Of a stretch of 42,096 nucleotides of DNA, positions 9,565 through 26,904 are shown one piece after another. This DNA is from a virus. Each line of letters opens with the position of its first letter. Position 1 is the first letter of the stretch. The notes under the pieces were generated by a model. It was not told the DNA's origin and did not search any database. It worked only from the letters and a program-made list of their open reading frames with translations. Position numbers and translations under genes: made by a program. The stretch is from positions 1 through 42,096 of IMG/VR virus record IMGVR_UViG_3300045988_168302. One strand, written 5' to 3'.

Positions 9565-12500
9565 ATGGCTTTAGATGTAAATAAATTTAATGATTTAGTA
9601 AATCAAAAGGTAGCAGAAAAGCAACAGCCACCTGAAGAAGAAAAATCCATATTTGAACAGATTGGCGAAGTAGTAACAAATCAATCTGATATAAATAGAC
9701 AAGTAGCCCAAGAGTCTACAGAAATTGCACAGGACGCACTGCAAACAGCAGGGCAAGGGATAGATTTAGTAGTAAATACAGCTAGTGATATCAACAATGC
9801 TTATCATAATTTTTTAGATGAGCAAAGAAATATTACTGGAGCATATACTACAGCAAATATTAATCAAGCAAATGAAACAGGCGATTATAGTTTTCAAAAT
9901 CAAGCTGTAGAAAATCTACAACAGGCAGGGCAAGAACTTATTTATTCACCATTAAAACAAGTAAGCCGTGCCATTGTAAATCGCTATAGTGATGACAATG
10001 AAAGCATATTGCAAGATGTAGCACAGGGAATACAAGAGAGCAATGCCTATGTAAATTACATGATGACTGATGAGGAAAAACTTCAAAAAGCCATTGAGAT
10101 TGAAAATGAAACAGGCATAAAGGCCAAAGAGTTTTTAAGTGATACTACTGCATATCGTGAAGCTATTGAGATTTATAACTATGCTAAGAAGAAAAAAGAA
10201 CTTGGCGGAGATATGAATGATGTATTTAATGAATTTCCAGAATTAAAAAATATAGCTAGTATGGACGCACAATCAGCTGCACTAGCTCTACATGATATTA
10301 ATAGCGTGAGAGAAACGCAGGGAGTCATTGACTCTTTTAATAAAATGTGGGAGTACGGAAATAAACATCTTGAATATAGCAATTTAAATTATAAATTAAT
10401 GACAGGGCAGGCAACGGAAGAAGATAAGGCTCGTATTGATGAATTAAAAAAACAATTAGAACAAGCACCAAATCTACCTGCATTTTTAGATAATCCATTT
10501 GCTGTAATAGCAGGCGGAGTGGCTGGCTCTATGCCCATGATGATACAGTCTATGGGCGAAATGATAGATGATTTTGCTATAGGTGCTAGTGCTGGTATGG
10601 TGGCAGGTGCTTTAGCAGGTTCAGCCTTGCCAGGAGCAGGGACTGTAGGCGGTGGCTTAGTAGGTGCAGTCGGTGGTGGTATTGCAAATACAATAAGAGC
10701 AAATGCCATAAGACAAGGAGCTATGCAAGGAGCAAGATTGACAGGTGGATATCTAGCAAGATATGGAATGTTTGCAGGCATGGCAAAGCCTGCAACAGGT
10801 GGATATTATGCAGAATTCAAAGACTTAAAAGGCGAAGATGGAAAGCCACTACTTTCTGATGAAGCAGCTAAAGATTATGCCGTAGTAGCAGGTGCATTGA
10901 ATGCTGGTATTGAAATGCTAGATTTTGGTTTAATCAAGGACGCATTTACAGGCAACGTAGCTAAGCAGACTGTAAAAGAAATTATCGCTACAGCACAAAA
11001 ACAAGCATTAGCTAAAGAAGGTATAAAATCTTTCTTTACTAATAGAGCAAGTGCGATAGCTAAAGTATCTATGGCGGAAAGTGGCGAAGAAGGTTTGCAA
11101 TCAATATCTGATGATTTGGTACACAATCAAATATTGCAAGATACTGGCGATACTACAAATAGAGTATATACAGCTACAGAGATTGCACAGCGTGCTTTGA
11201 TGAGTGCAGGCGAAGCACTACCAGGAGCTATTGGTTTTGGTGTGATATCTGCTGGAGTAGGTGGCTTTAATGAGTCTTTGGGATTTTCTCGCAATCTAAA
11301 AAGGTTGATGAGTAATAATGCTAAATTGGAGCAAAGCACTAGACAAACTTTCGCAGGTACATTGATGTTAGAAAGATTACAATCTGCTGTTAGAAATAGC
11401 AAATTAAAAAAGACAGCACCAAAGGTACAAGAAAGATTGTTGCGTAGCCAACTGGATAATACAGGTTTTGAAATGGCTTATGTAGATATACCTACAGCAC
11501 TTGAAAGCCAAACAGGAAAGCAAGACCTTCAAACATTGGCAAAGACAGCAGGATATACGCAGGAAGATTTAAAAACAGCTATTGAAATAGGTGGAACGCT
11601 TGCAATTCCTACAGCAAAATTTGCTCAAGCGGAAACTACAAGTGATATCATGCGTGCTGTAACTTTCAATCAAGAAGCAGATCCAATCGGCAAGCTAAGA
11701 AAAAATGCTGAAACTATAACAAATGAAATGCAAGATAGTATACAAAAAACAGCAGATAAACAACGTATACTGATAGATGCCATAATGCAAGAGCAATTTG
11801 CAAATGGTACAAAAGAACAGCAGACTATGGCACAGGCTGTAATTTACAATAATGTATCTAATCCAGCTAAAGGTTGGAAACAAGTCCATGATGACCAGAT
11901 AAATGAAAGAAATAATATTTTAGTGCCTGCAATAGATGCCATAAAAAAGAGCATAGAACAAAATGATACATGGTATCAGGAATTCTATGCTAAACATAAC
12001 AGAGCCATGATTGATAAAGAAATTGAAGATATGGCTTATAAATTAACTGTAGGACATGAAACAGCACCATCTATACCAACATGGCAAGCGACAACTCCTG
12101 AAGCTGTGCAAGCTTTGGCTGAAAATAAAAATATACTAGATGATATAGATAATAATTTGAAGGTATTAGATGAGATAAAACCACAGCTTAGCAATTTAAA
12201 TGGTGTAGAAATGAGGTTAGCTGAAGGACTTACTAAAGACGGATATGCAGTATATAATCGCCTATCAAAACAACTTCAAAATGCTGGCGGAAAAGTAAAA
12301 CGTGCAAGCCGTATGAGTGCTATTTTATTTGCTAGACATGCAGATATAGTAGCAGACATAATGCGAAGACATGGCAATGAAAACTACACAGCCATGACTT
12401 ATTACAATGAAAGATTTGCTTTAAATATAAAAGATGAAGTCAATAAAAATAAAGGTGATATCACTTTATTAAGTAATGGTCAGCGTGTTATCAATCTGTA

Positions 12501-15500
12501 TAAAGCTGCTGATGAATCCACTTTTGTACATGAAATGGCACATATGTTTTTAATGGATTTAGATGAGCTTGCTAAGATTGATGAATTATCTAAAAAAGAA
12601 TTGGATATAGTAAATGATTGGGCAAGTTGGAAAAATGAAAAATCTATTGATGAATATAAAAATGCCCCATGGTACAAAGAATTTAAAGCACGTCATGAAA
12701 GTATAATAAATGCTCAAAATGCTGGTGATGTAGCCAAAGTGGAAGAATTAAAAGAAGCATGGCGACAAGAACGATTTGCCAGGGCATTTGAATTATATTT
12801 ACAAAAAGGAACTGCACCAAGTAAAGGCTTAAAAGATGTGTTCCGTAAGTTAAAAAAATTCTTGCGTGATATCTATATTGGATTTACTTCTATTGGCGGA
12901 ATAGCAAGCCCAAAAGTAGAAGCCATAATGCAACGTATGGTGGCTACAGAAGAAGAAATAAACCAAATGGCATTAGATGATAGATATAGAGATATCACTA
13001 AGGCAGGCGGTGAAAAGCTACTTGATGAAACGGAAGAACAAACTTATAAACGTTGGCACAAGGAAGCTACAGAAGAAGCCAAAGAGCATCTAATGAAGAT
13101 AGTAATGCAAGATTTAAAAGCTGAAGCCAAAGTAAAATTTGATGAACGTGTAGAAAAAGAGCGAGCTTATAAACTGAATGAATTAGAAAATCAACCTGTA
13201 TATATAGCACAAGAAGCTTATAAAGAAGCAGGAGATATAAATATAGTTCTTAATTGGTTTGGTAGCGTAGAAGAATATAAACAGGCTCTAAAAAATACTA
13301 AGCCTATACAGACTGCACTTGATGAATACATGAAGCAGTATGAAAAAACTTTAGATACTGAACTAATGGAAAGCCATTTATCCGAAGAAAATATCTTGCA
13401 GGCTATGGAAGATAGTAAGTATACAAGTAAACTTGTGGCAATGGAAACTAGGATATTTAATGAAAAAGTAAAATTGATAAATAAAATAGGTTCTAAAACG
13501 CAAGTTGCTATGCAAGATGTAGAAGATAAATTAAATGCCCTTGATGATTACACAGATTTAAAAGTAGATAAAGAAGATGCTAGAGTAAAAAGCGTGATGA
13601 ATGCTTTAAATAAGCTTAGATTTAGCACTAAATGGAATGCCAAAGATTTAGGAAGAATTGAAGCAATGTTTAATAGCAATACAAAAGAAACTTTAGCTGA
13701 AGCTTTTAAACAATTTGTAGAAGAAACAAAACAGCAAAAGATAAATCGTGAAGCCATAGAAAAAGCCCATGAAGGTAAATTGAAAATGTTCAAGGAAATG
13801 GCAGAGCGTGCTTTGGACGGCAAAACCATTTTTGAAGCTTGTAATGTGGCTCTTTATCGTAAGAATGAAAGTATGCATGCACGCAGAGTAAAACAGGCTG
13901 TAAAGGCTAGTAACTGGGAGCGTGCCATGAAAGAAAAAGAAGCACAGTATATTTCTGCTGCTATGGCTCAAAAGGCATTGAAAAATAAATTGTATATACA
14001 AAAGAAAATAGAGAAGGTGAATAAACAGCTAAAAGTACGATCCATAAAATTACCAGCACAAGAACGATACTGGCATAAACATTTAGCCTATATCTTAGGT
14101 ATTACAAATAAAGATGCTAATCCACCTGTAGACGGAATAACACCACTTGCAGATTTATTCAAGGGATTACAAGATAGCTTAGATTTAGAATATACCCCAA
14201 CAGATATATTGGAGATAACAAGCCGTAGTGATTTCAGTGGTTATCAATCTATGACTATAGCCCAATTCGAGGACGCAGTGGAAGCACTAGATATCTTATA
14301 TACAACAGGTAGAGATAAATTCAAGTTAAAAACTATACAGGGGAAATCTATAGATGATGCTATAAATGAAATAATACTTGATGATACTGCTTATAACAGG
14401 TCAATGGTAATAAATAAAAAGATAAATCCAGATAAAGGTGGTCTTGGCTATAACGATTTAGTGGATAAGATACCACTTATTGGGGACGCTATGGCTCGTG
14501 GCGGTGCAAAATATTTAAGTTCCATGATGAAACCAGAAGAAATAATAAATATTTTGGGAACAAAAGCTCATAAATATTTATATGAAACATATGAGCGAGC
14601 ATCTAATCTTGAAGCTGAAATGATGACCAAAAACGTATACAAAATAAAAGAAATCTTAAAAGATTATAGCCATAGTGAAAAATTATCATGGAAGAAACAA
14701 CAATATAAATTAGAATTTGAAGATGGTACAGTAGAAAATCTATCAAAAGAAAATATTATCTGTATGGCTCTAAACTTAGGTAATGATATAAATAGAAGCC
14801 GTCTTGCTGTAGGATTTGGCTTGACAGAAGAATATCTCAAAGAATTTGTAGAAAAGCATATGACCAAAAAGGATTGGCAAATGGTACAAGATATATGGAA
14901 TCATTTACATTCTTTCTGGAAAGATACAGTAAGGGTAGAGCAAGAATTAAATGGCGTAACACTAAAACCGCAACAGCCAACACCATTTGATGTGAAGTTA
15001 CCTAATGGCGAGATATTGCATTTAGAAGGTGGCTATTATCCTATAGTAGCTAATCCACTAAAGAGCAATAGAGCCAATGAACAAGAGGTAAATGAAGCGG
15101 TAAGACGTACCATGAGCGGTGCACAAGTATTAGGCACTGGCAGAGGATTTACAAAGGCACGTTCACAGGCAAACATTGATAGAGCATTGCTTTTAGAATT
15201 TAGTGTAATACCTGACCATTTATCAAATGTAATCCACAATATAACGCATAGAATACCAGCAAGAGATGTTTATAGATTAGTAAAAAATAAACAATTTGAA
15301 GAATATGTAAATAGAACTATGGGTAAAGAAATATATCAGGTATTAGATGAATGGGCAGTGGATAATTGGCGAGTGATACCAGAAGCTAGTAATAATAAAA
15401 CAGTGCAAAAAGTATCTAAAATGCTTAGCTATTTAAGAACAAATTCTACACTAGCAATAATGGGATATAGACTTTATCCAATAATTGAAAACATGACAAA

Positions 15501-17043
15501 CATTGCACCAATGATGGATAAATTAGGTGCTATGAAATCTTTAGTAGCAATAGCAGATTACTATACAAATATAAGTAAATATCAAGAAGTGTTGCATAAA
15601 TCAATCTTTATGAAGAATAGGCTAAATCACATGGACAGGGATATAAAATACATTCCTGGATTGTTTGATGAAGATAGATTGGTAACAGGATTTTTAAAAG
15701 AACATGCATACACACTTATGACCTACAGTGATTTAATGTTTTCTGCTCCGTTATGGTGTAGAAGCTATAAAGATGCCTACGCTAAAAAACTTGATGAGGT
15801 AAAAAAAGAAAATGAAGCTAATGTAGAAAAATTGCAAAATGCACAAGCTAAAGTATCTACAATCAGAGCTAGAATAATGGACCTGCAACAAAATGCATTG
15901 AAATCAAATTTTGTTGTGCAAGGTACAAATATAAATCAAGTGGGGGATTTTCAGACTTTTGTAAATACAAGAGAAGAATTAAACCAATTACAAAAAGATT
16001 TATATATGGCGGAAGTAGAGCTAGATAATGCTAGTGAGCTTAGATTCTTAACCGATAAAGAAATCTTGGCTAAAGCTGAAAGTCGATCCATTGCTGAAGC
16101 TGATAAATCTATCCGTGAAGTATTCGGAAGTGGGCAGACAAAAGATTTAGCATCTATTCAAAAAGGTGGAGAGTTGCTGAAATTATTTACACCTTTTTAC
16201 ACTTTCTTTAATACGCAGGCTAATGCTATCTTGCAAGCTTACTATAAAGGAAAATTCATGAAGTCGACTACAATGGGTGAAAATATTACAAGGTGGCTAC
16301 CTGTGGCAAGGTCTTTTCTATATCGTATTGTGCTTACTTCTGCATTATCTACTATGCTACGTATGGCACTGCTCGGTGATGGAAGTGATGATAAGCATAA
16401 ATATGAAAAGGTGAAAAATGCAGAAGGTACAGAAGAAAAAATAGAGATACCTGTAATGCAAAGATTTTTGACACAGTTTGGCAAAAATACCTTATCCACC
16501 ATGGCTGGCACTATGTGGGGTGTACGAGATATAGCAAGCTTTTTTATCAATGAAAGTTTTGAAGGTACAGATTATGGTAGAGGTATTGGCTTTTCTACTG
16601 TGGCACTTGCTGGCGGTGAAAAAATAACTGCACTATATAAACTGCTAGATAAAAAAGCAGAAAAAGATTTAGAGATAGCAGATAAGGAAGCTAAATGGCA
16701 AGCTGAATATATGAAGGCAGGGGCAAAGAAAAGAAAAACCATGCTTGAAGATAAACAGTATCAAAAGCCACCAAAACGCATAACTTATGCAGATATAGCA
16801 AAAGCTTCAGGGGAAATTGGTACAACGTTCTTTGCAGCTAGGACAGGTATAACAAGTACCATGGCAAATAGTGTCTTCACCACTATGCAATATATAGCTG
16901 ATGGTGATGGTCGATATGATACGAACCTTAAAAATATTATTTGGTCTGCACTCTTTAATAAAAAGCCAGTAGAAAGAGTGATACCAGAAAAACCGAAACA
17001 ACCAAAGAAAAAGGGGAAATCTAAGAACGTAAGGAGATACTAA
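9565..17043 (+). CDS. Giant internal virion or ejection protein of 2492 aa, at the gp15/gp16 position.
   Basis: A single uninterrupted ORF with a good RBS. It has a Gly/Ala-rich hydrophobic zipper (AGGVAGSMP..GGGLVGAVGGGIANT) and extensive coiled coil. There is an HEMAH motif at 12529..12543 and a basic C-terminal tail. Confidence 0.7.
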   Translation: MALDVNKFNDLVNQKVAEKQQPPEEEKSIFEQIGEVVTNQSDINRQVAQESTEIAQDALQTAGQGIDLVVNTASDINNAYHNFLDEQRNITGAYTTANINQANETGDYSFQNQAVENLQQAGQELIYSPLKQVSRAIVNRYSDDNESILQDVAQGIQESNAYVNYMMTDEEKLQKAIEIENETGIKAKEFLSDTTAYREAIEIYNYAKKKKELGGDMNDVFNEFPELKNIASMDAQSAALALHDINSVRETQGVIDSFNKMWEYGNKHLEYSNLNYKLMTGQATEEDKARIDELKKQLEQAPNLPAFLDNPFAVIAGGVAGSMPMMIQSMGEMIDDFAIGASAGMVAGALAGSALPGAGTVGGGLVGAVGGGIANTIRANAIRQGAMQGARLTGGYLARYGMFAGMAKPATGGYYAEFKDLKGEDGKPLLSDEAAKDYAVVAGALNAGIEMLDFGLIKDAFTGNVAKQTVKEIIATAQKQALAKEGIKSFFTNRASAIAKVSMAESGEEGLQSISDDLVHNQILQDTGDTTNRVYTATEIAQRALMSAGEALPGAIGFGVISAGVGGFNESLGFSRNLKRLMSNNAKLEQSTRQTFAGTLMLERLQSAVRNSKLKKTAPKVQERLLRSQLDNTGFEMAYVDIPTALESQTGKQDLQTLAKTAGYTQEDLKTAIEIGGTLAIPTAKFAQAETTSDIMRAVTFNQEADPIGKLRKNAETITNEMQDSIQKTADKQRILIDAIMQEQFANGTKEQQTMAQAVIYNNVSNPAKGWKQVHDDQINERNNILVPAIDAIKKSIEQNDTWYQEFYAKHNRAMIDKEIEDMAYKLTVGHETAPSIPTWQATTPEAVQALAENKNILDDIDNNLKVLDEIKPQLSNLNGVEMRLAEGLTKDGYAVYNRLSKQLQNAGGKVKRASRMSAILFARHADIVADIMRRHGNENYTAMTYYNERFALNIKDEVNKNKGDITLLSNGQRVINLYKAADESTFVHEMAHMFLMDLDELAKIDELSKKELDIVNDWASWKNEKSIDEYKNAPWYKEFKARHESIINAQNAGDVAKVEELKEAWRQERFARAFELYLQKGTAPSKGLKDVFRKLKKFLRDIYIGFTSIGGIASPKVEAIMQRMVATEEEINQMALDDRYRDITKAGGEKLLDETEEQTYKRWHKEATEEAKEHLMKIVMQDLKAEAKVKFDERVEKERAYKLNELENQPVYIAQEAYKEAGDINIVLNWFGSVEEYKQALKNTKPIQTALDEYMKQYEKTLDTELMESHLSEENILQAMEDSKYTSKLVAMETRIFNEKVKLINKIGSKTQVAMQDVEDKLNALDDYTDLKVDKEDARVKSVMNALNKLRFSTKWNAKDLGRIEAMFNSNTKETLAEAFKQFVEETKQQKINREAIEKAHEGKLKMFKEMAERALDGKTIFEACNVALYRKNESMHARRVKQAVKASNWERAMKEKEAQYISAAMAQKALKNKLYIQKKIEKVNKQLKVRSIKLPAQERYWHKHLAYILGITNKDANPPVDGITPLADLFKGLQDSLDLEYTPTDILEITSRSDFSGYQSMTIAQFEDAVEALDILYTTGRDKFKLKTIQGKSIDDAINEIILDDTAYNRSMVINKKINPDKGGLGYNDLVDKIPLIGDAMARGGAKYLSSMMKPEEIINILGTKAHKYLYETYERASNLEAEMMTKNVYKIKEILKDYSHSEKLSWKKQQYKLEFEDGTVENLSKENIICMALNLGNDINRSRLAVGFGLTEEYLKEFVEKHMTKKDWQMVQDIWNHLHSFWKDTVRVEQELNGVTLKPQQPTPFDVKLPNGEILHLEGGYYPIVANPLKSNRANEQEVNEAVRRTMSGAQVLGTGRGFTKARSQANIDRALLLEFSVIPDHLSNVIHNITHRIPARDVYRLVKNKQFEEYVNRTMGKEIYQVLDEWAVDNWRVIPEASNNKTVQKVSKMLSYLRTNSTLAIMGYRLYPIIENMTNIAPMMDKLGAMKSLVAIADYYTNISKYQEVLHKSIFMKNRLNHMDRDIKYIPGLFDEDRLVTGFLKEHAYTLMTYSDLMFSAPLWCRSYKDAYAKKLDEVKKENEANVEKLQNAQAKVSTIRARIMDLQQNALKSNFVVQGTNINQVGDFQTFVNTREELNQLQKDLYMAEVELDNASELRFLTDKEILAKAESRSIAEADKSIREVFGSGQTKDLASIQKGGELLKLFTPFYTFFNTQANAILQAYYKGKFMKSTTMGENITRWLPVARSFLYRIVLTSALSTMLRMALLGDGSDDKHKYEKVKNAEGTEEKIEIPVMQRFLTQFGKNTLSTMAGTMWGVRDIASFFINESFEGTDYGRGIGFSTVALAGGEKITALYKLLDKKAEKDLEIADKEAKWQAEYMKAGAKKRKTMLEDKQYQKPPKRITYADIAKASGEIGTTFFAARTGITSTMANSVFTTMQYIADGDGRYDTNLKNIIWSALFNKKPVERVIPEKPKQPKKKGKSKNVRRY

Positions 17044-19305: not shown

Positions 19306-19602
19306 ATGAAGAAAATAATTGTATTAACAATGTTGTTAATGTCTTTATGTGCATCATGTTTTGCAAGCTCGTTACATGATATACAAGACACTATAGGCAC
19401 AGATAAATTTGCTCATTTTGGTGTCGGCTATGTAGTATCAAATGAATTACAACATGCAGGCATGAGTAAATTAGAAGCAGTGGCAACAGTGGCATTTCTT
19501 GCTTATGCAAAAGAAAAATGGGTAGATGATACATTCAGTAAATCAGATATCGGTGCTACAGTTTTGGGCGGAGTGATACCGCTATATAAGAAGGAATTTT
19601 AG
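19306..19602 (+). CDS. Small secreted protein with an N-terminal signal peptide.
   Basis: MKKIIVLTMLLMSLCASCFASS is a signal peptide. RBS ggagtgg. Confidence 0.5.
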   Translation: MKKIIVLTMLLMSLCASCFASSLHDIQDTIGTDKFAHFGVGYVVSNELQHAGMSKLEAVATVAFLAYAKEKWVDDTFSKSDIGATVLGGVIPLYKKEF

Positions 19603-19706
19603 GTTTACTTTACTTTTTGCAAAAATCTATACATTTACTTGACTTTAAAAGTAAAGTAGGTGTGTAGATTTAACTAAAAAGTAAAGTTGATAATGAGGTG
19701 ATGAAA

Positions 19707-20156
19707 ATGCAGGAGCTTAGTATATTTTTAAAATCATTGATACCAGTAAGATTAGAAATAGAAGTAGGTGTTATAGTGGCTTTTTGTGGTACTGTGGTTA
19801 ATTATTTTTTAGGGCAATGGACACCACTATTAGAAACACTAATTATATTTATGTTGTTTGATTATATAACTGGAGTAATGTCTGCATGGATTAATCCATA
19901 TAAAAAGCTCGATAGCAGGAAAGGTATGAACGGATTAAAAAGAAAAGGTGTAATTTTAATAATGGTGATGGTCGGACATTTTTTTGATAATGCTATTGGA
20001 CAAAATACCATGACACGTGATATAGTAGCACTTTTCTATCTTGGCAATGAGGGATTATCTATATTAGAAAATGTAGCAAATTGTGGGGTGCCTGTGCCGA
20101 ATAATCTAAAAGATAAATTAGCACAATTCGCAGATGATAAAACTACTAGAAATTAA
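19707..20156 (+). CDS. Holin of the TcdE/UviB family (phage_holin_4_1).
   Basis: Three predicted TM segments. The C-terminus NCGVPVPNNLKDKLAQFADD matches TcdE LCGLPVPKRLKEKIAILLDA. ATG 19707 has the best spacing to gaggtg. Alternative starts lie at 19698 and 19701. Confidence 0.65.
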   Translation: MQELSIFLKSLIPVRLEIEVGVIVAFCGTVVNYFLGQWTPLLETLIIFMLFDYITGVMSAWINPYKKLDSRKGMNGLKRKGVILIMVMVGHFFDNAIGQNTMTRDIVALFYLGNEGLSILENVANCGVPVPNNLKDKLAQFADDKTTRN

Positions 20157-23027: not shown

Positions 23028-23771
23028 ATGTTAAACAATCAACTTGTACTGAAATATGAAGCAGGTGGCAATCCTGCAACTGTAAGTACAGGAAGCGGAG
23101 ATTTAGGCGGTAAATCTTATGGAAGATATCAATTTTCAAGTACAGCTGGTGTAGTTGAAAACTTTGTTGAATGGCTGTGCAATTATCCTGAAGCTTGCTA
23201 TGCAAATTATGGTAGAGTCTTAAAAAATGCCTATCCAGTTAATTCAAGTGGATTTATAAATGAATGGAAATCTATCGGTACAATAGATGCCGAAGGTTTT
23301 GGCAAATTGCAAGACGAATATGCAGGCGATATGTACTATAATGTAGGCTATTTTAATTTATTAAATGGCGGATATGATATCACCAAACACAATGAAACCA
23401 TGAAAGCGGTATTATTCAGTCGTGCCATTCAATATGGCCCAGCAAATATGTGTGAACTTTGGACAGAAGCAGTAAGACTTATGGGACACCCAGAAATTAG
23501 CTGGGTAGATGATAAATGCTTTGATAGGGAAATGATTGAATGCATATATAATTTTCTGATCCAAGAATGTGATAATGCATATTTAACTTCTAAAGGTACT
23601 TATCATAGCCCTAAAGATTGGGCAAATGGTAGCTATGACGTAGTAAAAATAGGGCTTAGAAATCGTTTTATAAATGAAAAGGCTGATGCATTAAAACTAC
23701 TTGAAGATGAGGGTTTTGAAAAAAATAAAAATATAAAATCTAGTAAAGCCTTACCAATAAAGGATTTTTAG
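23028..23771 (+). CDS. Putative lysozyme-like peptidoglycan hydrolase (GH108-like motif), a candidate endolysin.
   Basis: KYEAGGNPATVSTGSGDLGGKSYGRYQF resembles the GH108 signature EGGYvnDpnDpGGeTkyGI. The later LFSRAIQYGPANMCELWTEAV corresponds to LFDFAVNaGvgrAakfLQ. Preceded by the repeated regulatory element. Confidence 0.35.
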   Translation: MLNNQLVLKYEAGGNPATVSTGSGDLGGKSYGRYQFSSTAGVVENFVEWLCNYPEACYANYGRVLKNAYPVNSSGFINEWKSIGTIDAEGFGKLQDEYAGDMYYNVGYFNLLNGGYDITKHNETMKAVLFSRAIQYGPANMCELWTEAVRLMGHPEISWVDDKCFDREMIECIYNFLIQECDNAYLTSKGTYHSPKDWANGSYDVVKIGLRNRFINEKADALKLLEDEGFEKNKNIKSSKALPIKDF

Positions 23772-24447: not shown

Positions 24448-24684
24448 ATGTTAGTAAAAATTATTAGTACAAAAAAATTACCTGAAAAAGTAGTGGCATA
24501 TATTAAAAACGTATATAAAACCAATACCCAAAATGTTAATAGTGCATTACTTGATATCAATGACAAATTTAACTTACAAGGTGATGAAAGATATTTGACC
24601 ATGGGACATAGTGAGCATGGTGATGTAATTTATTTCTGTGAACAGCGTGCAGAAAATAAAGTTATTGAAGAATTTGAAGTGTGA
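24448..24684 (+). CDS. Hypothetical protein.
   Basis: RBS aaggag. 78 aa. Confidence 0.5.
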   Translation: MLVKIISTKKLPEKVVAYIKNVYKTNTQNVNSALLDINDKFNLQGDERYLTMGHSEHGDVIYFCEQRAENKVIEEFEV

Positions 24685-25121
24685 TGATAAATGTGTTTAG
24701 TAAAATTAAAAACTTTATCCAGGAACATAAAAAAATGTGCTGTGTTTTTTTGCTTGTGCTGTGTATTTGCTTTGCCTACTGGTTACTGTTCGCAAACGTA
24801 TACGATAACACAGGAACAGCTAACGACGCTAGAAACCAACTTAATACAGCTCAAGAAGAACAACAGCGAGCTACAGAATCTATTGAACAAATCCAATCAG
24901 GAATTGATGACAGCATCGAAACAGTCGGAAGTATTGAACAGTCAAATAACGAAGCTAAAGACACAGCTGATGACATCACAGACACAAATACAAACATTAA
25001 CACAGCAATTACAAACGCTCAAGACTCAATCACAGCAGGCACAGGACTCATTGACGATAGCCAGCGAAGAATTGAACAAAGTCTCACAATCATTGAAGAT
25101 ATCCGAGCAGGAGCAAAATAA
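24684..25121 (+). CDS. Frame-1 product of the AC-rich segment: N-terminal TM anchor plus acidic coiled-coil domain, i-spanin-like architecture.
   Basis: ATG 24684 overlaps the upstream stop as TGATG. The TM segment is CCVFLLVLCICFAYWLLF. Third-position composition resembles the rest of the genome more than frame 2 does. Confidence 0.4.
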   Translation: MINVFSKIKNFIQEHKKMCCVFLLVLCICFAYWLLFANVYDNTGTANDARNQLNTAQEEQQRATESIEQIQSGIDDSIETVGSIEQSNNEAKDTADDITDTNTNINTAITNAQDSITAGTGLIDDSQRRIEQSLTIIEDIRAGAK

Positions 25122-25182
25122 ACTTAAAAAACAAAGGCTATTATGGCAAATAATAGCAGGAACATTATTGATATTTAAATAA
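24691..25182 (+). CDS. Frame-2 product of the same segment: signal-peptide-like N-terminus, heptad Leu coiled coil and a C-terminal TM anchor.
   Basis: 163 codons open in a second frame. The coiled coil has regular heptads (LTTLETNLIQLKK..LQTLKTQ). It ends with the TM segment LLWQIIAGTLLIF. Third positions are G-rich and atypical for this genome. Confidence 0.35.
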   Translation: MCLVKLKTLSRNIKKCAVFFCLCCVFALPTGYCSQTYTITQEQLTTLETNLIQLKKNNSELQNLLNKSNQELMTASKQSEVLNSQITKLKTQLMTSQTQIQTLTQQLQTLKTQSQQAQDSLTIASEELNKVSQSLKISEQEQNKLKKQRLLWQIIAGTLLIFK

Positions 25183-25208
25183 AAAAGAGCTTTCGTAGCT
25201 CTTTTTTT
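25181..25208. terminator. Bidirectional rho-independent terminator.
   Basis: aaaaaa-gagct-ttcgt-agctc-ttttttt. Confidence 0.75.
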
Positions 25209-25256
25209 ATTTAAATCAACGTTCCGAACATTAAAAATAAAATCGATGAGTAAAAG

Positions 25257-25289
25257 AAAAAAAGACTACCTTATTTGGTAGTCTTTTTT
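25257..25289. terminator. Bidirectional terminator at the 3' end of the minus-strand gene.
   Basis: aaaaaagactacc-ttattt-ggtagtctttttt. The stop codon of the minus gene lies in the loop. Confidence 0.75.
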
Positions 25290-26824
25290 ACTCTAGTACA
25301 CCCACATGATTTACTATAACCATTAATTACATAAGATTTATTGAATTCCTTTATATTGCCACAATCACATTTACAGACAACTCTATTTTTACCTAGTTCT
25401 TTTATAATGGTGAGATGATTAAATTTTTGCCCTGTTCTATCTATAATACTTTTTGTTTTCCTCAAACATCCGCATGATTTTGTATGACCGTTAATAACGT
25501 TGTTTTTTGCTGTTTCAATGATATTCCCACAATCGCAACGACAACGAACTTTTGTTGTATTATATCCTTTAGAGTCTTTTACGTAAAATTCTTCTAATAC
25601 AGTAAGGGAATTAAATTTTTTACCTATTATATTTTCTGTAATGCGTTTTATTTTTATGGTTTTATAAGGGCAGTTTTTATCACCACAATATTTTTTTTCC
25701 TCTAAAATCACATCTTGTTTTTTAGCTTCAACAATGTTGCCACAATCACAACGGCAAATAACTTTTGTCTTATAACCACCATTTTCCTTTATAATGGTGA
25801 GGTGATTAAATTTTTTACCTATATAAGATTTAATTTTAGGGCCTCTAGTTATGCATCCACAAGATTTTGTGTTGCCACTAACTATTGTTGATTTTTTTAA
25901 TATTTTTACGTTTCCACAATCACATTTACAAAGAACTTTATCGCCGCCTAGCTCTTCTAATATAGTGAGCATGTTAAATTTCTTACCTACATAAGATTTA
26001 CGAACTTGTGTTTTTTTATTAGCAAAATAGTTTCTTATAATAGGAAGGAAATATTTCTTTTCTGCTTCTTTTCGAGCTTTAATGGCTTCTTCTTTAGTAT
26101 CAAATTTCCCTAAAGAAATTAAAGTATTACTGATACCAATTTTAGCCTCCCATTTATTCAATTTAGGGCGGAAAAATACTCCGTTTATTCCGCTTTTATT
26201 ATTTTTAGCAAGCTTCCTATTGCTTATAAGCTTTATATTAGTACAACGTATACTAAATTTTTTTAAACCATTATGCATTTTATCTGTTCTGGATTTATTA
26301 GCGCATAAATTACATGAGGTGGATTTATGATGTGTTAAATTTGCTGTTAAAACTATTGTTGTATTACCACAACTACATTTGCATAACCATTTTACTGGCT
26401 TATTTTGTATTTTTTTTATAACTGTAAGATTGCCAAAAACTTTTCCTGTTAAATCAATAAAGTTCGGATTTTCTTTAGAAATACATCCACAGTCTTTTAT
26501 TGAACCATTAATCACACGGTCTTTTCTTAAAATTTTTTCATTGCCACAATCACAACGGCAAAGAATTTTGTTTTCTCCAAGTTCTTTAATAATGGTAAGA
26601 TGATTGAATTTTTCTCCTTCTTTATTATCGATTTTGTATTGTCCACTATTAATAAATTCATAACGTTTGCACCCACAGGATTTTGTTTTTCCTGTTTTAA
26701 CTTTATATTTATCGTATTCCTTAACTGTTCCACAATCACAGCGACAAATAATTCTATTATTACCTAATTCTTTTATAACTGTAAGATAGTTAAATTTCTG
26801 TCCTGTTAAATCTATAAATTTCAA
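25271..26824 (-). CDS. Protein of about eight tandem Cys-rich modules ([F]xxLTVIKELGxNKxxCxCDCGNxK...GxTKSCGC) around a central AP2/ERF-type DNA-binding domain.
   Basis: The AP2 consensus SGINGVFFRPKLNKWEAKIGI..SLGKFDTKEEAIKARKEA lies at about 26050..26210. TTG start at 26824 has a perfect SD aaggagtg 6 nt upstream. The in-frame ATG at 26878 has no SD. Confidence 0.65.
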   Translation of the reverse strand: MKFIDLTGQKFNYLTVIKELGNNRIICRCDCGTVKEYDKYKVKTGKTKSCGCKRYEFINSGQYKIDNKEGEKFNHLTIIKELGENKILCRCDCGNEKILRKDRVINGSIKDCGCISKENPNFIDLTGKVFGNLTVIKKIQNKPVKWLCKCSCGNTTIVLTANLTHHKSTSCNLCANKSRTDKMHNGLKKFSIRCTNIKLISNRKLAKNNKSGINGVFFRPKLNKWEAKIGISNTLISLGKFDTKEEAIKARKEAEKKYFLPIIRNYFANKKTQVRKSYVGKKFNMLTILEELGGDKVLCKCDCGNVKILKKSTIVSGNTKSCGCITRGPKIKSYIGKKFNHLTIIKENGGYKTKVICRCDCGNIVEAKKQDVILEEKKYCGDKNCPYKTIKIKRITENIIGKKFNSLTVLEEFYVKDSKGYNTTKVRCRCDCGNIIETAKNNVINGHTKSCGCLRKTKSIIDRTGQKFNHLTIIKELGKNRVVCKCDCGNIKEFNKSYVINGYSKSCGCTRVKKTTK

Positions 26825-26904
26825 ATTACTCACTCCTTGATAGATAATCAAAGATAAGCTATAATATTTACAGCTCATCTGATTAATAGAAACATTAGAT
26901 GTAA

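Follow-up and report, generated by a model that had tools for sequence, protein, structure and literature searches.

Two conserved, almost completely overlapping reading frames in a phage lysis region: a very probable gene pair and a candidate spanin-type module

The viral DNA analysed here, positions 1 to 42,096 of IMG/VR record IMGVR_UViG_3300045988_168302 (the window, meaning the whole 42,096-nucleotide (nt) stretch), carries at 24684..25182 on its plus strand a segment that very probably holds two real genes, written on the same DNA in two frames. The reading frame 24681/24684..25121 is designated F1 and the reading frame 24691..25182 is designated F2. Taken as a whole, the reading preferred here is that these are two genes acting as a spanin-type outer-membrane-disruption module of phages of diderm Firmicutes, to which we give a probability of about 0.6. 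Conservation of both open frames in 16 divergent lineages and reduced divergence at every codon position of the overlap argue for the two genes; gene position, predicted topology and host envelope point to the function. The features of the pair are as follows, with lengths in amino acids (aa).

24684..25121, plus strand: F1 gene, 145 aa from the ATG at 24684, or 146 aa from the in-frame GTG at 24681 (from the list of open reading frames, ORFs)
24691..25182, plus strand: F2 gene, 163 aa from its ATG, in the +1 frame relative to F1 (ORF list)
24676..24693, plus strand: shared start region, with both starts within 7 nt and one weak GAAG Shine-Dalgarno-like element upstream
24735..24794, plus strand: predicted transmembrane segment of F1, residues 18-37, MCCVFLLVLCICFAYWLLFA
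24787..24789, plus strand: codon for Cys33 of F2, in the conserved motif G-x-C-S-(E/Q)-x-Y-x-I-T
24816..25118, plus strand: dual-coded heptad core, in which the a/d positions of both coiled coils lie on the same tetranucleotides
25138..25176, plus strand: C-terminal hydrophobic tail of F2, residues 150-162, LLWQIIAGTLLIF, in single-coding DNA past the F1 stop
25176..25213, plus strand: terminator hairpin directly 3′ of the F2 stop (-13.8 kcal/mol, z -5.3)

The overlap in the window measures 428 nt (approximately 143 codons), over which F1 and F2 are both open and the third forward frame contains 21 stops in 144 codons. The first-pass annotation, made from the letters of the window, had described two overlapping open frames in an AC-rich, T-depleted segment with atypical codon usage, and each of these points was confirmed. 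The core at 24800..25120 consists of 44% A, 22% C, 18% G and 16% T, as against 29% T (and 32% GC) in the window overall, and the codon-usage score was -1.09 and -1.27 in the two overlap frames compared with -0.82 to -0.95 in 14 other genes. Codon usage in the F2-only tail was nearly normal, at -0.97.

Close relatives of F1 were found at 94%-99% identity, and a search with F2 gave one divergent protein, P0010 (57% identity), in whose locus, L001 (related loci carry L numbers), genes for a holin and for a homolog of the window lysozyme are immediately followed by both ORFs, of 146 and 168 aa. An F1 profile retrieved 416 cluster representatives at E <= 1e-3 and 113 at E <= 1e-10 (clusters at 50% identity), and nearly all of the members listed are ~110-190 aa long. 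Sixteen divergent lineages with DNA were compared: the window, L001, L013, L014, L015, L016, L017, L019/L020, L021, L023, L024, L025, L026, L027, L028 and L030, with F1 profile E-values from 1e-73 down to 5e-10. Whether homologs keep both frames open was the comparison proposed with the original description, and the outcome was the same in all 16: the +1 frame is open over the whole overlap (368-447 nt) and encodes a recognisable F2 homolog, and the +2 frame is interrupted by stops, its longest open run being 2-22 codons. Pairwise identity among the lineages falls to 15% for F1 and 21% for F2, and indels between them are multiples of 7 codons. Gene callers annotated F1 in nearly all contigs, and F2 instead in one record of nr and one contig. 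DNA and protein searches of the GenBank phage collection (50,697 records) with the region and four F1/F2 variants gave no match, and F2 matched no PHROG, Pfam or NCBIfam family. An antisense ORF of 105 aa (L001 6092..6409, minus strand; also in L008 and L012) was considered as a third gene and rejected, as it is broken in the window (longest stretch 50 aa); its openness in the three contigs of the L001 clade is best explained by the A-poor composition of the antisense strand.

For the window by itself, the chance of a second open frame depends on the null model. With codons shuffled, the probability of an open frame was 0.003 for F2 and 0.002 for F1; with synonymous codons resampled from genome usage, 0 of 20000 sequences were open and 10-12 stops were expected; under the strictest null, in which the region's own synonymous codons were permuted, the probabilities were 0.047 (F2) and 0.087 (F1). 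The chance figure of 3e-4 given at first lies within the range of the looser nulls, and the window alone is suggestive of dual coding, not decisive. In the window sequence, 21 single-base substitutions could introduce a stop into F1 with no effect on the F2 protein, and another 21 could do so in F2 with the F1 protein unaltered; no lineage carries any of them. Per lineage, the strictest null gave probabilities of 0.0007-0.2, and log10 P summed over the 16 lineages was -25 for F2 and -37 for F1; the sum treats the lineages as independent, which they are not fully, and the combined probabilities are indicative only.

Divergence at each codon position was compared with that of neighbouring genes. 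Between the window and L001, the neighbouring lysozyme (70% aa identity) differs at 26%, 20% and 55% of codon positions 1, 2 and 3, whereas F1 (46% aa identity) differs at 41%, 28% and 30% and F2 (56% aa identity) at 26%, 23% and 39%. Other lineage pairs behave in the same way, and no position of the overlap is a free wobble position, which is the signature of selection on both frames. Within clades, third positions of the lysozyme differ by 16%-19% as against 0.7%-5.5% at all three positions of the overlap (Fisher P for reduced divergence 6e-4 to 2e-7, for the third positions of both F1 and F2). The synonymous-constraint analysis that the first-pass annotation had recommended thus found synonymous sites to be constrained in both frames. 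Classes of within-clade variants (13 that alter the F1 protein alone, 12 that alter F2 alone, 7 that alter both and 1 that alters neither) were dropped as evidence, since alone they do not separate dual constraint from neutrality, which only the rate comparison with neighbouring genes does.

The starts of both frames adjoin one upstream element. In the window, the stop of the upstream ORF (orf78, TGA at 24682..24684) overlaps the F1 ATG (TGATG) and is followed by TGA, TAA and the F2 ATG at 24691; the arrangement reads ATGATAAATG, with the two starts 7 nt apart. Ten lineages have (A/T)TGAATGA, in which the F1 start and the F2 ATG are 4 nt apart with a single Shine-Dalgarno sequence upstream, and four have ATGTGG, in which the F2 ATG lies 2 nt ahead of an F1 GTG. 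The F1 start codon in relatives is ATG, TTG or GTG and adjoins the same Shine-Dalgarno sequence as F2, whose own ATG is present in nearly all lineages. In the simplest model of expression, ribosomes would land at one site and initiate at one or the other of the two neighbouring starts. At the other end, the hairpin after the F2 stop is preceded by an A-tract and followed by a T-tract, the bidirectional form of an intrinsic terminator, as had been proposed from the sequence at first; equivalent hairpins lie 3′ of the F2 stop in L001, L013 and L014.

Several further observations concern the 5′ end. The upstream ORF (24448..24684) shares the frame of F2, with only TGA-TGA-TAA between them. In protein P0009, from a 42,057-bp contig, an in-frame deletion of 117 nt fuses the upstream ORF to F2 residue 17 and removes the F1 start. 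In the close relative L011 (CYGL01000628.1, 161..668), a 1-nt deletion in an A-run is compensated by a 1-nt insertion in a T-run 43 nt on (~24702 and ~24745 of the window), between which F1 reads the F2 frame and F2 loses its ATG and charged N-terminus; this pair of indels could be genuine or could stem from sequencing errors in the homopolymers.

Within the heptad core, the two coiled coils draw their a/d residues from shared tetranucleotides: GCTA gives Ala in one frame and Leu in the other, and ATTG and ATTA give Ile and Leu. Counted modulo 7, the hydrophobic residues occupy positions 2 and 5 of F2 and positions 0 and 4 of F1, F1 residue i overlapping F2 residue i-2, and the heptad register is continuous in both proteins. 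T is confined to 4 of every 21 positions, and its 10.5-nt periodicity was significant in each of the 16 lineages, with no more than 1 in 1000 codon shuffles reaching the observed value. The AC-rich, T-poor composition and the scarcity of stops follow from this concentration of T in the shared a/d tetranucleotides; the atypical composition reported at first is real, and its explanation is the confinement of T to shared heptad codons. The F1 heptad periodicity was dropped as independent evidence, because Leu codons of F2 (TTR/CTN) force F1 codons of the form NTT/NCT. Long same-strand overlaps are familiar from phiX174, where D/E and A/B are overlapping genes, one of them for a lysis protein, in a tiny genome under size pressure. 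In contrast to those overlaps, which join unrelated protein types, the pair described here occurs in phages of 42 kb to ~120 kb and would encode two products of the same structural class in a shared heptad register.

F1 is predicted to consist of a hydrophobic run (residues 18-37) and an acidic heptad helix of ~105 residues, and AlphaFold2 (AF2) modelled a single helix from residue 16 to 144 with a predicted local distance difference test (pLDDT) score of 86. The N-terminal transmembrane anchor and acidic coiled coil first attributed to frame 1 were thus borne out by prediction from sequence and by model. An uncharged hydrophobic run of 15-20 residues near the N-terminus is predicted from sequence in 17 of 17 homologous sequences, and the T-rich DNA of this segment also encodes the hydrophobic core of the F2 signal peptide. 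Compared with lambda Rz, no linker is predicted between two helices in F1.

F1 matches phrog_18860, a PHROG that carries no annotated function and is matched over nearly full length by 9 of 25 sampled members of the F1 family (E down to 1.8e-7). Matches of the family to Rz-like spanin PHROGs are weak and recurrent: phrog_739 was matched by 9 of the 25 (best 3.1e-5) and phrog_214 by 4 (best E 3.9e-7). Neither F1 nor F2 gave a match above cut-off in Pfam or NCBIfam, and no curated spanin model was matched above threshold. DUF948, the Pfam label borne by some F1 relatives in nr, scored 16 bits against a cut-off of 37.2, below the gathering threshold. Sub-threshold matches in Pfam, NCBIfam and PADLOC (SMC, Rad50, JetC, LmuB, crescentin, ATG16) were rejected as compositional coiled-coil matches, and a Foldseek search of the PDB with the F1 model returned no match, as expected for a single helix. 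Many F1 homologs (for example L014, L015, L016, L021, L026 and L027) have a Cys at approximately residue 126, in the motif DSxRRIxEC. This Cys is absent from F1 of the window; the C-terminal tail of some F2 homologs, or the sequence near it, also contains a Cys, and disulfide links are known in Rz/Rz1.

F2 is predicted to begin with a positively charged N-terminus and a hydrophobic run, which Cys33 follows, and to continue as a Leu/Gln heptad helix of ~110 residues that leads to a hydrophobic tail. Signal peptides and lipoboxes were assigned by pattern inspection. The signal-peptide layout is present in all lineages and the G-x-C motif in 15 of 17 sequences; in a 10-sequence alignment, G31, C33, Y37 and the heptad Leu residues were invariant. 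Cys33 is a possible lipidation site, judged from the motif, in which the lipobox of the window (TGYC) is non-canonical. F2 continues 20-25 codons past the F1 stop with a conserved Trp, 12-16 hydrophobic residues and Lys or Arg, and its length ranges from 143 to 188 aa across lineages. With two sequences as input, AF2 modelled F2 as a helix (6-26), a loop (27-40) and a second helix (41-162), with a pLDDT of 84. Of the architecture first proposed for frame 2, the signal-like N-terminus, the Leu heptad helix and a C-terminal hydrophobic element were found; as a membrane anchor, that element is only 12-16 hydrophobic residues long.

The pair was placed in its genomic setting with reference to the following features.

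19698..20156, plus strand: holin (phrog_199, E 8e-27), homolog of the holin directly upstream of the L001 cassette
23028..23771, plus strand: endolysin, a single-domain VgrG3-like lysozyme of 247 aa with no wall-binding domain (PF21277, E 3.6e-29)
25258..25289: second terminator, serving the convergent HNH-type gene

The window genome is podovirus-like, with T7-type head, tail-tube and portal PHROGs, and the relatives that carry the pair include myovirus-like prophages, phages of 84-120 kb and others. In L001, the enzyme encoded immediately before the pair shares 70% identity with the window endolysin. The pair lies directly downstream of the endolysin in L001, L008, L012, L015, L016, L017, L019, L020, L021, L023, L025, L027 and L028; in the window, L026 and L030 the two are no more than ~1 kb apart. 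These endolysins belong to at least four unrelated types (GH25, Amidase_2, Amidase_3 and VgrG3-like lysozyme, with one unassigned); all are single-domain enzymes of 185-254 aa, which is consistent with a diderm host and is no proof of one.

Three members could be assigned a host: L008 is a contig of a Megamonas metagenome-assembled genome, the flank of L012 encodes a permease identical to one from Megamonas funiformis, and that of L021 encodes GatA, GatB and CopA of Anaerosinus (Selenobaculum) gibii. All three are prophages of Negativicutes, which are Firmicutes with a lipopolysaccharide outer membrane. The GC content of M. funiformis is 31.5% (PMC8638592), which the 32% of the window matches. 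Spanins imply an outer membrane, and the first-pass annotation had seen a conflict with Gram-positive-like clues elsewhere in the window; this objection falls, because the assignable hosts are diderm.

If the pair acts as a spanin-type module, the sequence would be as follows. Both frames are probably translated from starts a few nt apart, served by a single site for ribosome binding or re-initiation where the late lysis transcript ends. F1 would be a type II inner-membrane protein whose N-terminal transmembrane helix continues into an acidic periplasmic helix of ~16 nm. F2 would be exported by a signal peptide ending in G-x-C, possibly lipid-modified, and would consist of a Leu-zipper helix of ~16-18 nm with a short C-terminal hydrophobic anchor. 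In a third lysis step, after holin and endolysin, the inner and outer membranes would be brought together or fused by rods with anchors on either side of the periplasm; on the models, a rigid helix of 16-18 nm with a hydrophobic element at each end fits the bridging of two membranes better than insertion in one. Translation of both frames, their subcellular location, the interaction of F1 with F2 and outer-membrane disruption are parts of this scheme that we infer. Going by position, predicted topology and host envelope, the balance tips slightly towards a spanin-type function, and the best reading of the predicted structures is that F1 has an i-spanin-like architecture and F2 a u-spanin-like topology.

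The closest known systems are the two-component spanins. Like lambda Rz/Rz1, T7 18.5/18.7 and P2 LysB/LysC, F1 and F2 would be the last lysis genes of a phage with a diderm host, with a +1-frame partner of the kind usually missed by gene callers; one product has a predicted N-terminal transmembrane segment and periplasmic coiled coil, and its partner has a putative export signal that in most lineages ends in Cys. In a spanin census confined to classical Gram-negative hosts, embedded o-spanins start at 0.4-0.5 of the i-spanin length (PMC6139136), overlapped pairs share 70-155 bp (PMC6139136, Kongari et al. 2018) and mature o-spanins are ~40-60 aa long with no transmembrane segment (PMC6139136). 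Unlike these, the present frames overlap by 368-447 nt, and F2, the longer of the two products, is predicted to be helical throughout and to end in a hydrophobic anchor; few lineages have a canonical lipobox, the hosts are without a Lol pathway, and no family-level sequence match was found. At 143-188 aa and with a hydrophobic tail, F2 falls outside the definition of an o-spanin as a small mature protein with no transmembrane domain. The T7 parallel drawn at first is apt as to overlapping lysis genes and differs in that the overlap here is essentially complete, with starts 2-7 nt apart in most lineages. The u-spanin gp11 of phage T1 acts alone, and its periplasmic domain is predicted to be mainly beta sheet (PMC6139136). 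F2 resembles it in the predicted combination of an N-terminal lipoprotein-like signal with a C-terminal anchor and in being long enough to cross the periplasm, and differs in its all-alpha heptad helix, in always being co-encoded with F1 and in lacking the Cys in two lineages. The spanin-like reading first offered for the segment has the support of context and topology and is slightly more likely than not; F2 is not an o-spanin of the Rz1/18.7 type.

A literature search found no description of spanins for phages of Negativicutes, Veillonella or Megamonas. That the pair represents a new spanin class, in which a type II inner-membrane coiled coil and a doubly anchored u-spanin-like coiled coil are encoded by the same ~430 nt and co-translated in Lol-less hosts, is in our estimate an even bet. 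Overlapping spanin genes are already known; what is new here is the near full-length overlap and a second product of a different architectural class.

Several results weigh against the preferred reading. The openness of the window on its own is only marginal under the strictest null, and the heptad patterns of F1 and F2 are partly automatic by-products of one another and not independent. The G-x-C of F2 fits a PROSITE-type lipobox in only 3 of 17 sequences (L001, IGSC; L025, VGGC; L028); position -1 is mostly bulky (F, Y, I or L), and the Cys is absent in L023 and L027. The tail of F2 is short for a transmembrane helix, the PHROG spanin matches of the F1 family could reflect transmembrane and coiled-coil composition, and a host could be assigned in only 3 of the 16 lineages. 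According to the literature (PMC5007114, PMC5491611), LolA/LolB are missing from every Negativicutes genome, lipoproteins have not been demonstrated in the outer membrane of these bacteria, and Veillonella yielded no acylated proteins of the outer membrane, so that the canonical route of o- and u-spanins to the outer membrane is unavailable in these hosts.

The alternative that survives best, which we consider unlikely, accepts both proteins as real and gives them another membrane function, for instance in lysis timing (as an antiholin-like protein or holin partner), in release of the OmpM tether between outer membrane and peptidoglycan or in superinfection exclusion. All of the evidence for dual coding applies equally to it, and the lipobox pattern, the Lol-less hosts and the silence of the curated spanin models speak in its favour. 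So does gene order in part of the family, as two small ORFs intervene between the endolysin and the pair in the window and L026, and in L028/L030 the pair lies at the border with early or DNA-metabolism genes. Against it, in most lineages the pair sits right after the endolysin, the classical spanin slot, whichever of the unrelated endolysin types is present, and a separate holin is present; the predicted products, long rods that carry hydrophobic anchors at both tips, are suited to bridging membranes; and diderm hosts require an outer-membrane step for which no other candidate was seen in these cassettes.

The remaining alternatives deny one or both genes. It is very unlikely that F2 is the only gene and that F1 is open as a by-product of F2's T-poor codons, rich in Gln, Leu, Thr and Ser. 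F2 is the better conserved frame (mean pairwise identity 40% vs 32% for F1; 30 vs 12 columns at least 80% conserved), its third position is the most variable, as expected of a lone gene, the hydrophobic periodicity of F1 would follow automatically from the F2 Leu codons, and F2 is the frame annotated in a single contig and a single nr record. If the F2 protein and codon pool are held fixed, however, 2-5.7 stops are expected in the F1 frame per lineage and none occurs in 16; synonymous sites of F2 diverge 3-8 times more slowly than those of the neighbour, and the F1 start is conserved beside the Shine-Dalgarno sequence in a family with recurrent Rz-like PHROG matches. Less probable again, and hard to credit, is that F1 is the only gene and F2 a spurious ORF permitted by the AC-rich composition. 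F1 is indeed the frame annotated in nearly all contigs, and the strictest null leaves F2 open with a probability of 0.1-0.2 in a few lineages, but F2 is the more conserved and F1 does not vary most at its third position. F2 begins at an ATG of its own, shows the layout of a signal peptide, keeps its heptad Leu residues invariant and continues past the F1 stop in a conserved tail with near-normal codons; the terminator follows the F2 stop and not that of F1, and the summed log10 P of -25 stands against it. An RNA or DNA element, or a single product made by programmed frameshifting between the frames, could be suggested by the homopolymer runs near the 5′ end (A7, T7) and by the -1/+1 indels of L011 that swap the frames for 43 nt, but is just as improbable, given that no Rfam family was matched at threshold (only sub-threshold matches, on the terminator region), that conservation is at the amino-acid level with heptad-phased indels and two starts and two stops each conserved, and that no slippery-site and stimulator arrangement is conserved across lineages in a search that was not exhaustive.

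Other genes of the window and of L001 yielded separate observations. Convergent with the lysis block, 25271..26878 (minus strand) encodes a protein of 535 aa with approximately eight tandem Cys-rich modules (KFNxLTVIKELGxNKxxCxCDCGN) and an AP2 domain, which matches phrog_374 ("HNH endonuclease", E 1.6e-108). Between the tail-spike gene and the holin, an ORF of 98 aa (19306..19602, plus strand) has a lipoprotein-like signal, MKKIIVLTMLLMSLCASC, and its product could be another envelope-directed phage protein. In the virion and tail block, an ORF of 2492 aa (9565..17043, plus strand) matches phrog_9880, which has no known function (E 5e-135), and is preceded by a gene for a protein of 754 aa with a weak endolysin-like match at its N-terminus; the two products are probably ejected internal proteins. 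In L001, 1638..3757 contains four consecutive tail-fibre-like ORFs, one of them inverted, which all end in ...SNQAHNN(L/M)QPY(L/I)xVY(M/I)WKR(I/T)(A/S) and look like a cassette of alternative fibre C-termini, possibly invertible.

The overlap of F1 and F2 is an unusually clean natural case of two full-length proteins of the same fold class on one stretch of DNA. The rule behind it is simple, in that YT dinucleotides spaced every 10.5 nt serve the a/d positions in both frames, and is relevant to the evolution of overlapping genes and to protein design. As a gene, F2 is widespread and hidden: it is almost never annotated, in a family that comprises 416 clusters for F1. The pair provides a testable candidate for the means by which phages of diderm Firmicutes (Megamonas, relatives of Veillonella and others) breach the outer membrane. 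If the spanin reading is true, the pair would exceed all other conserved spanin overlaps in length, would be the first candidate of its kind in Negativicutes and would imply Lol-independent engagement of the outer membrane; should F2 prove to be a lipoprotein and to reach the outer membrane, it would also serve as a probe for the lipoprotein traffic of Negativicutes.

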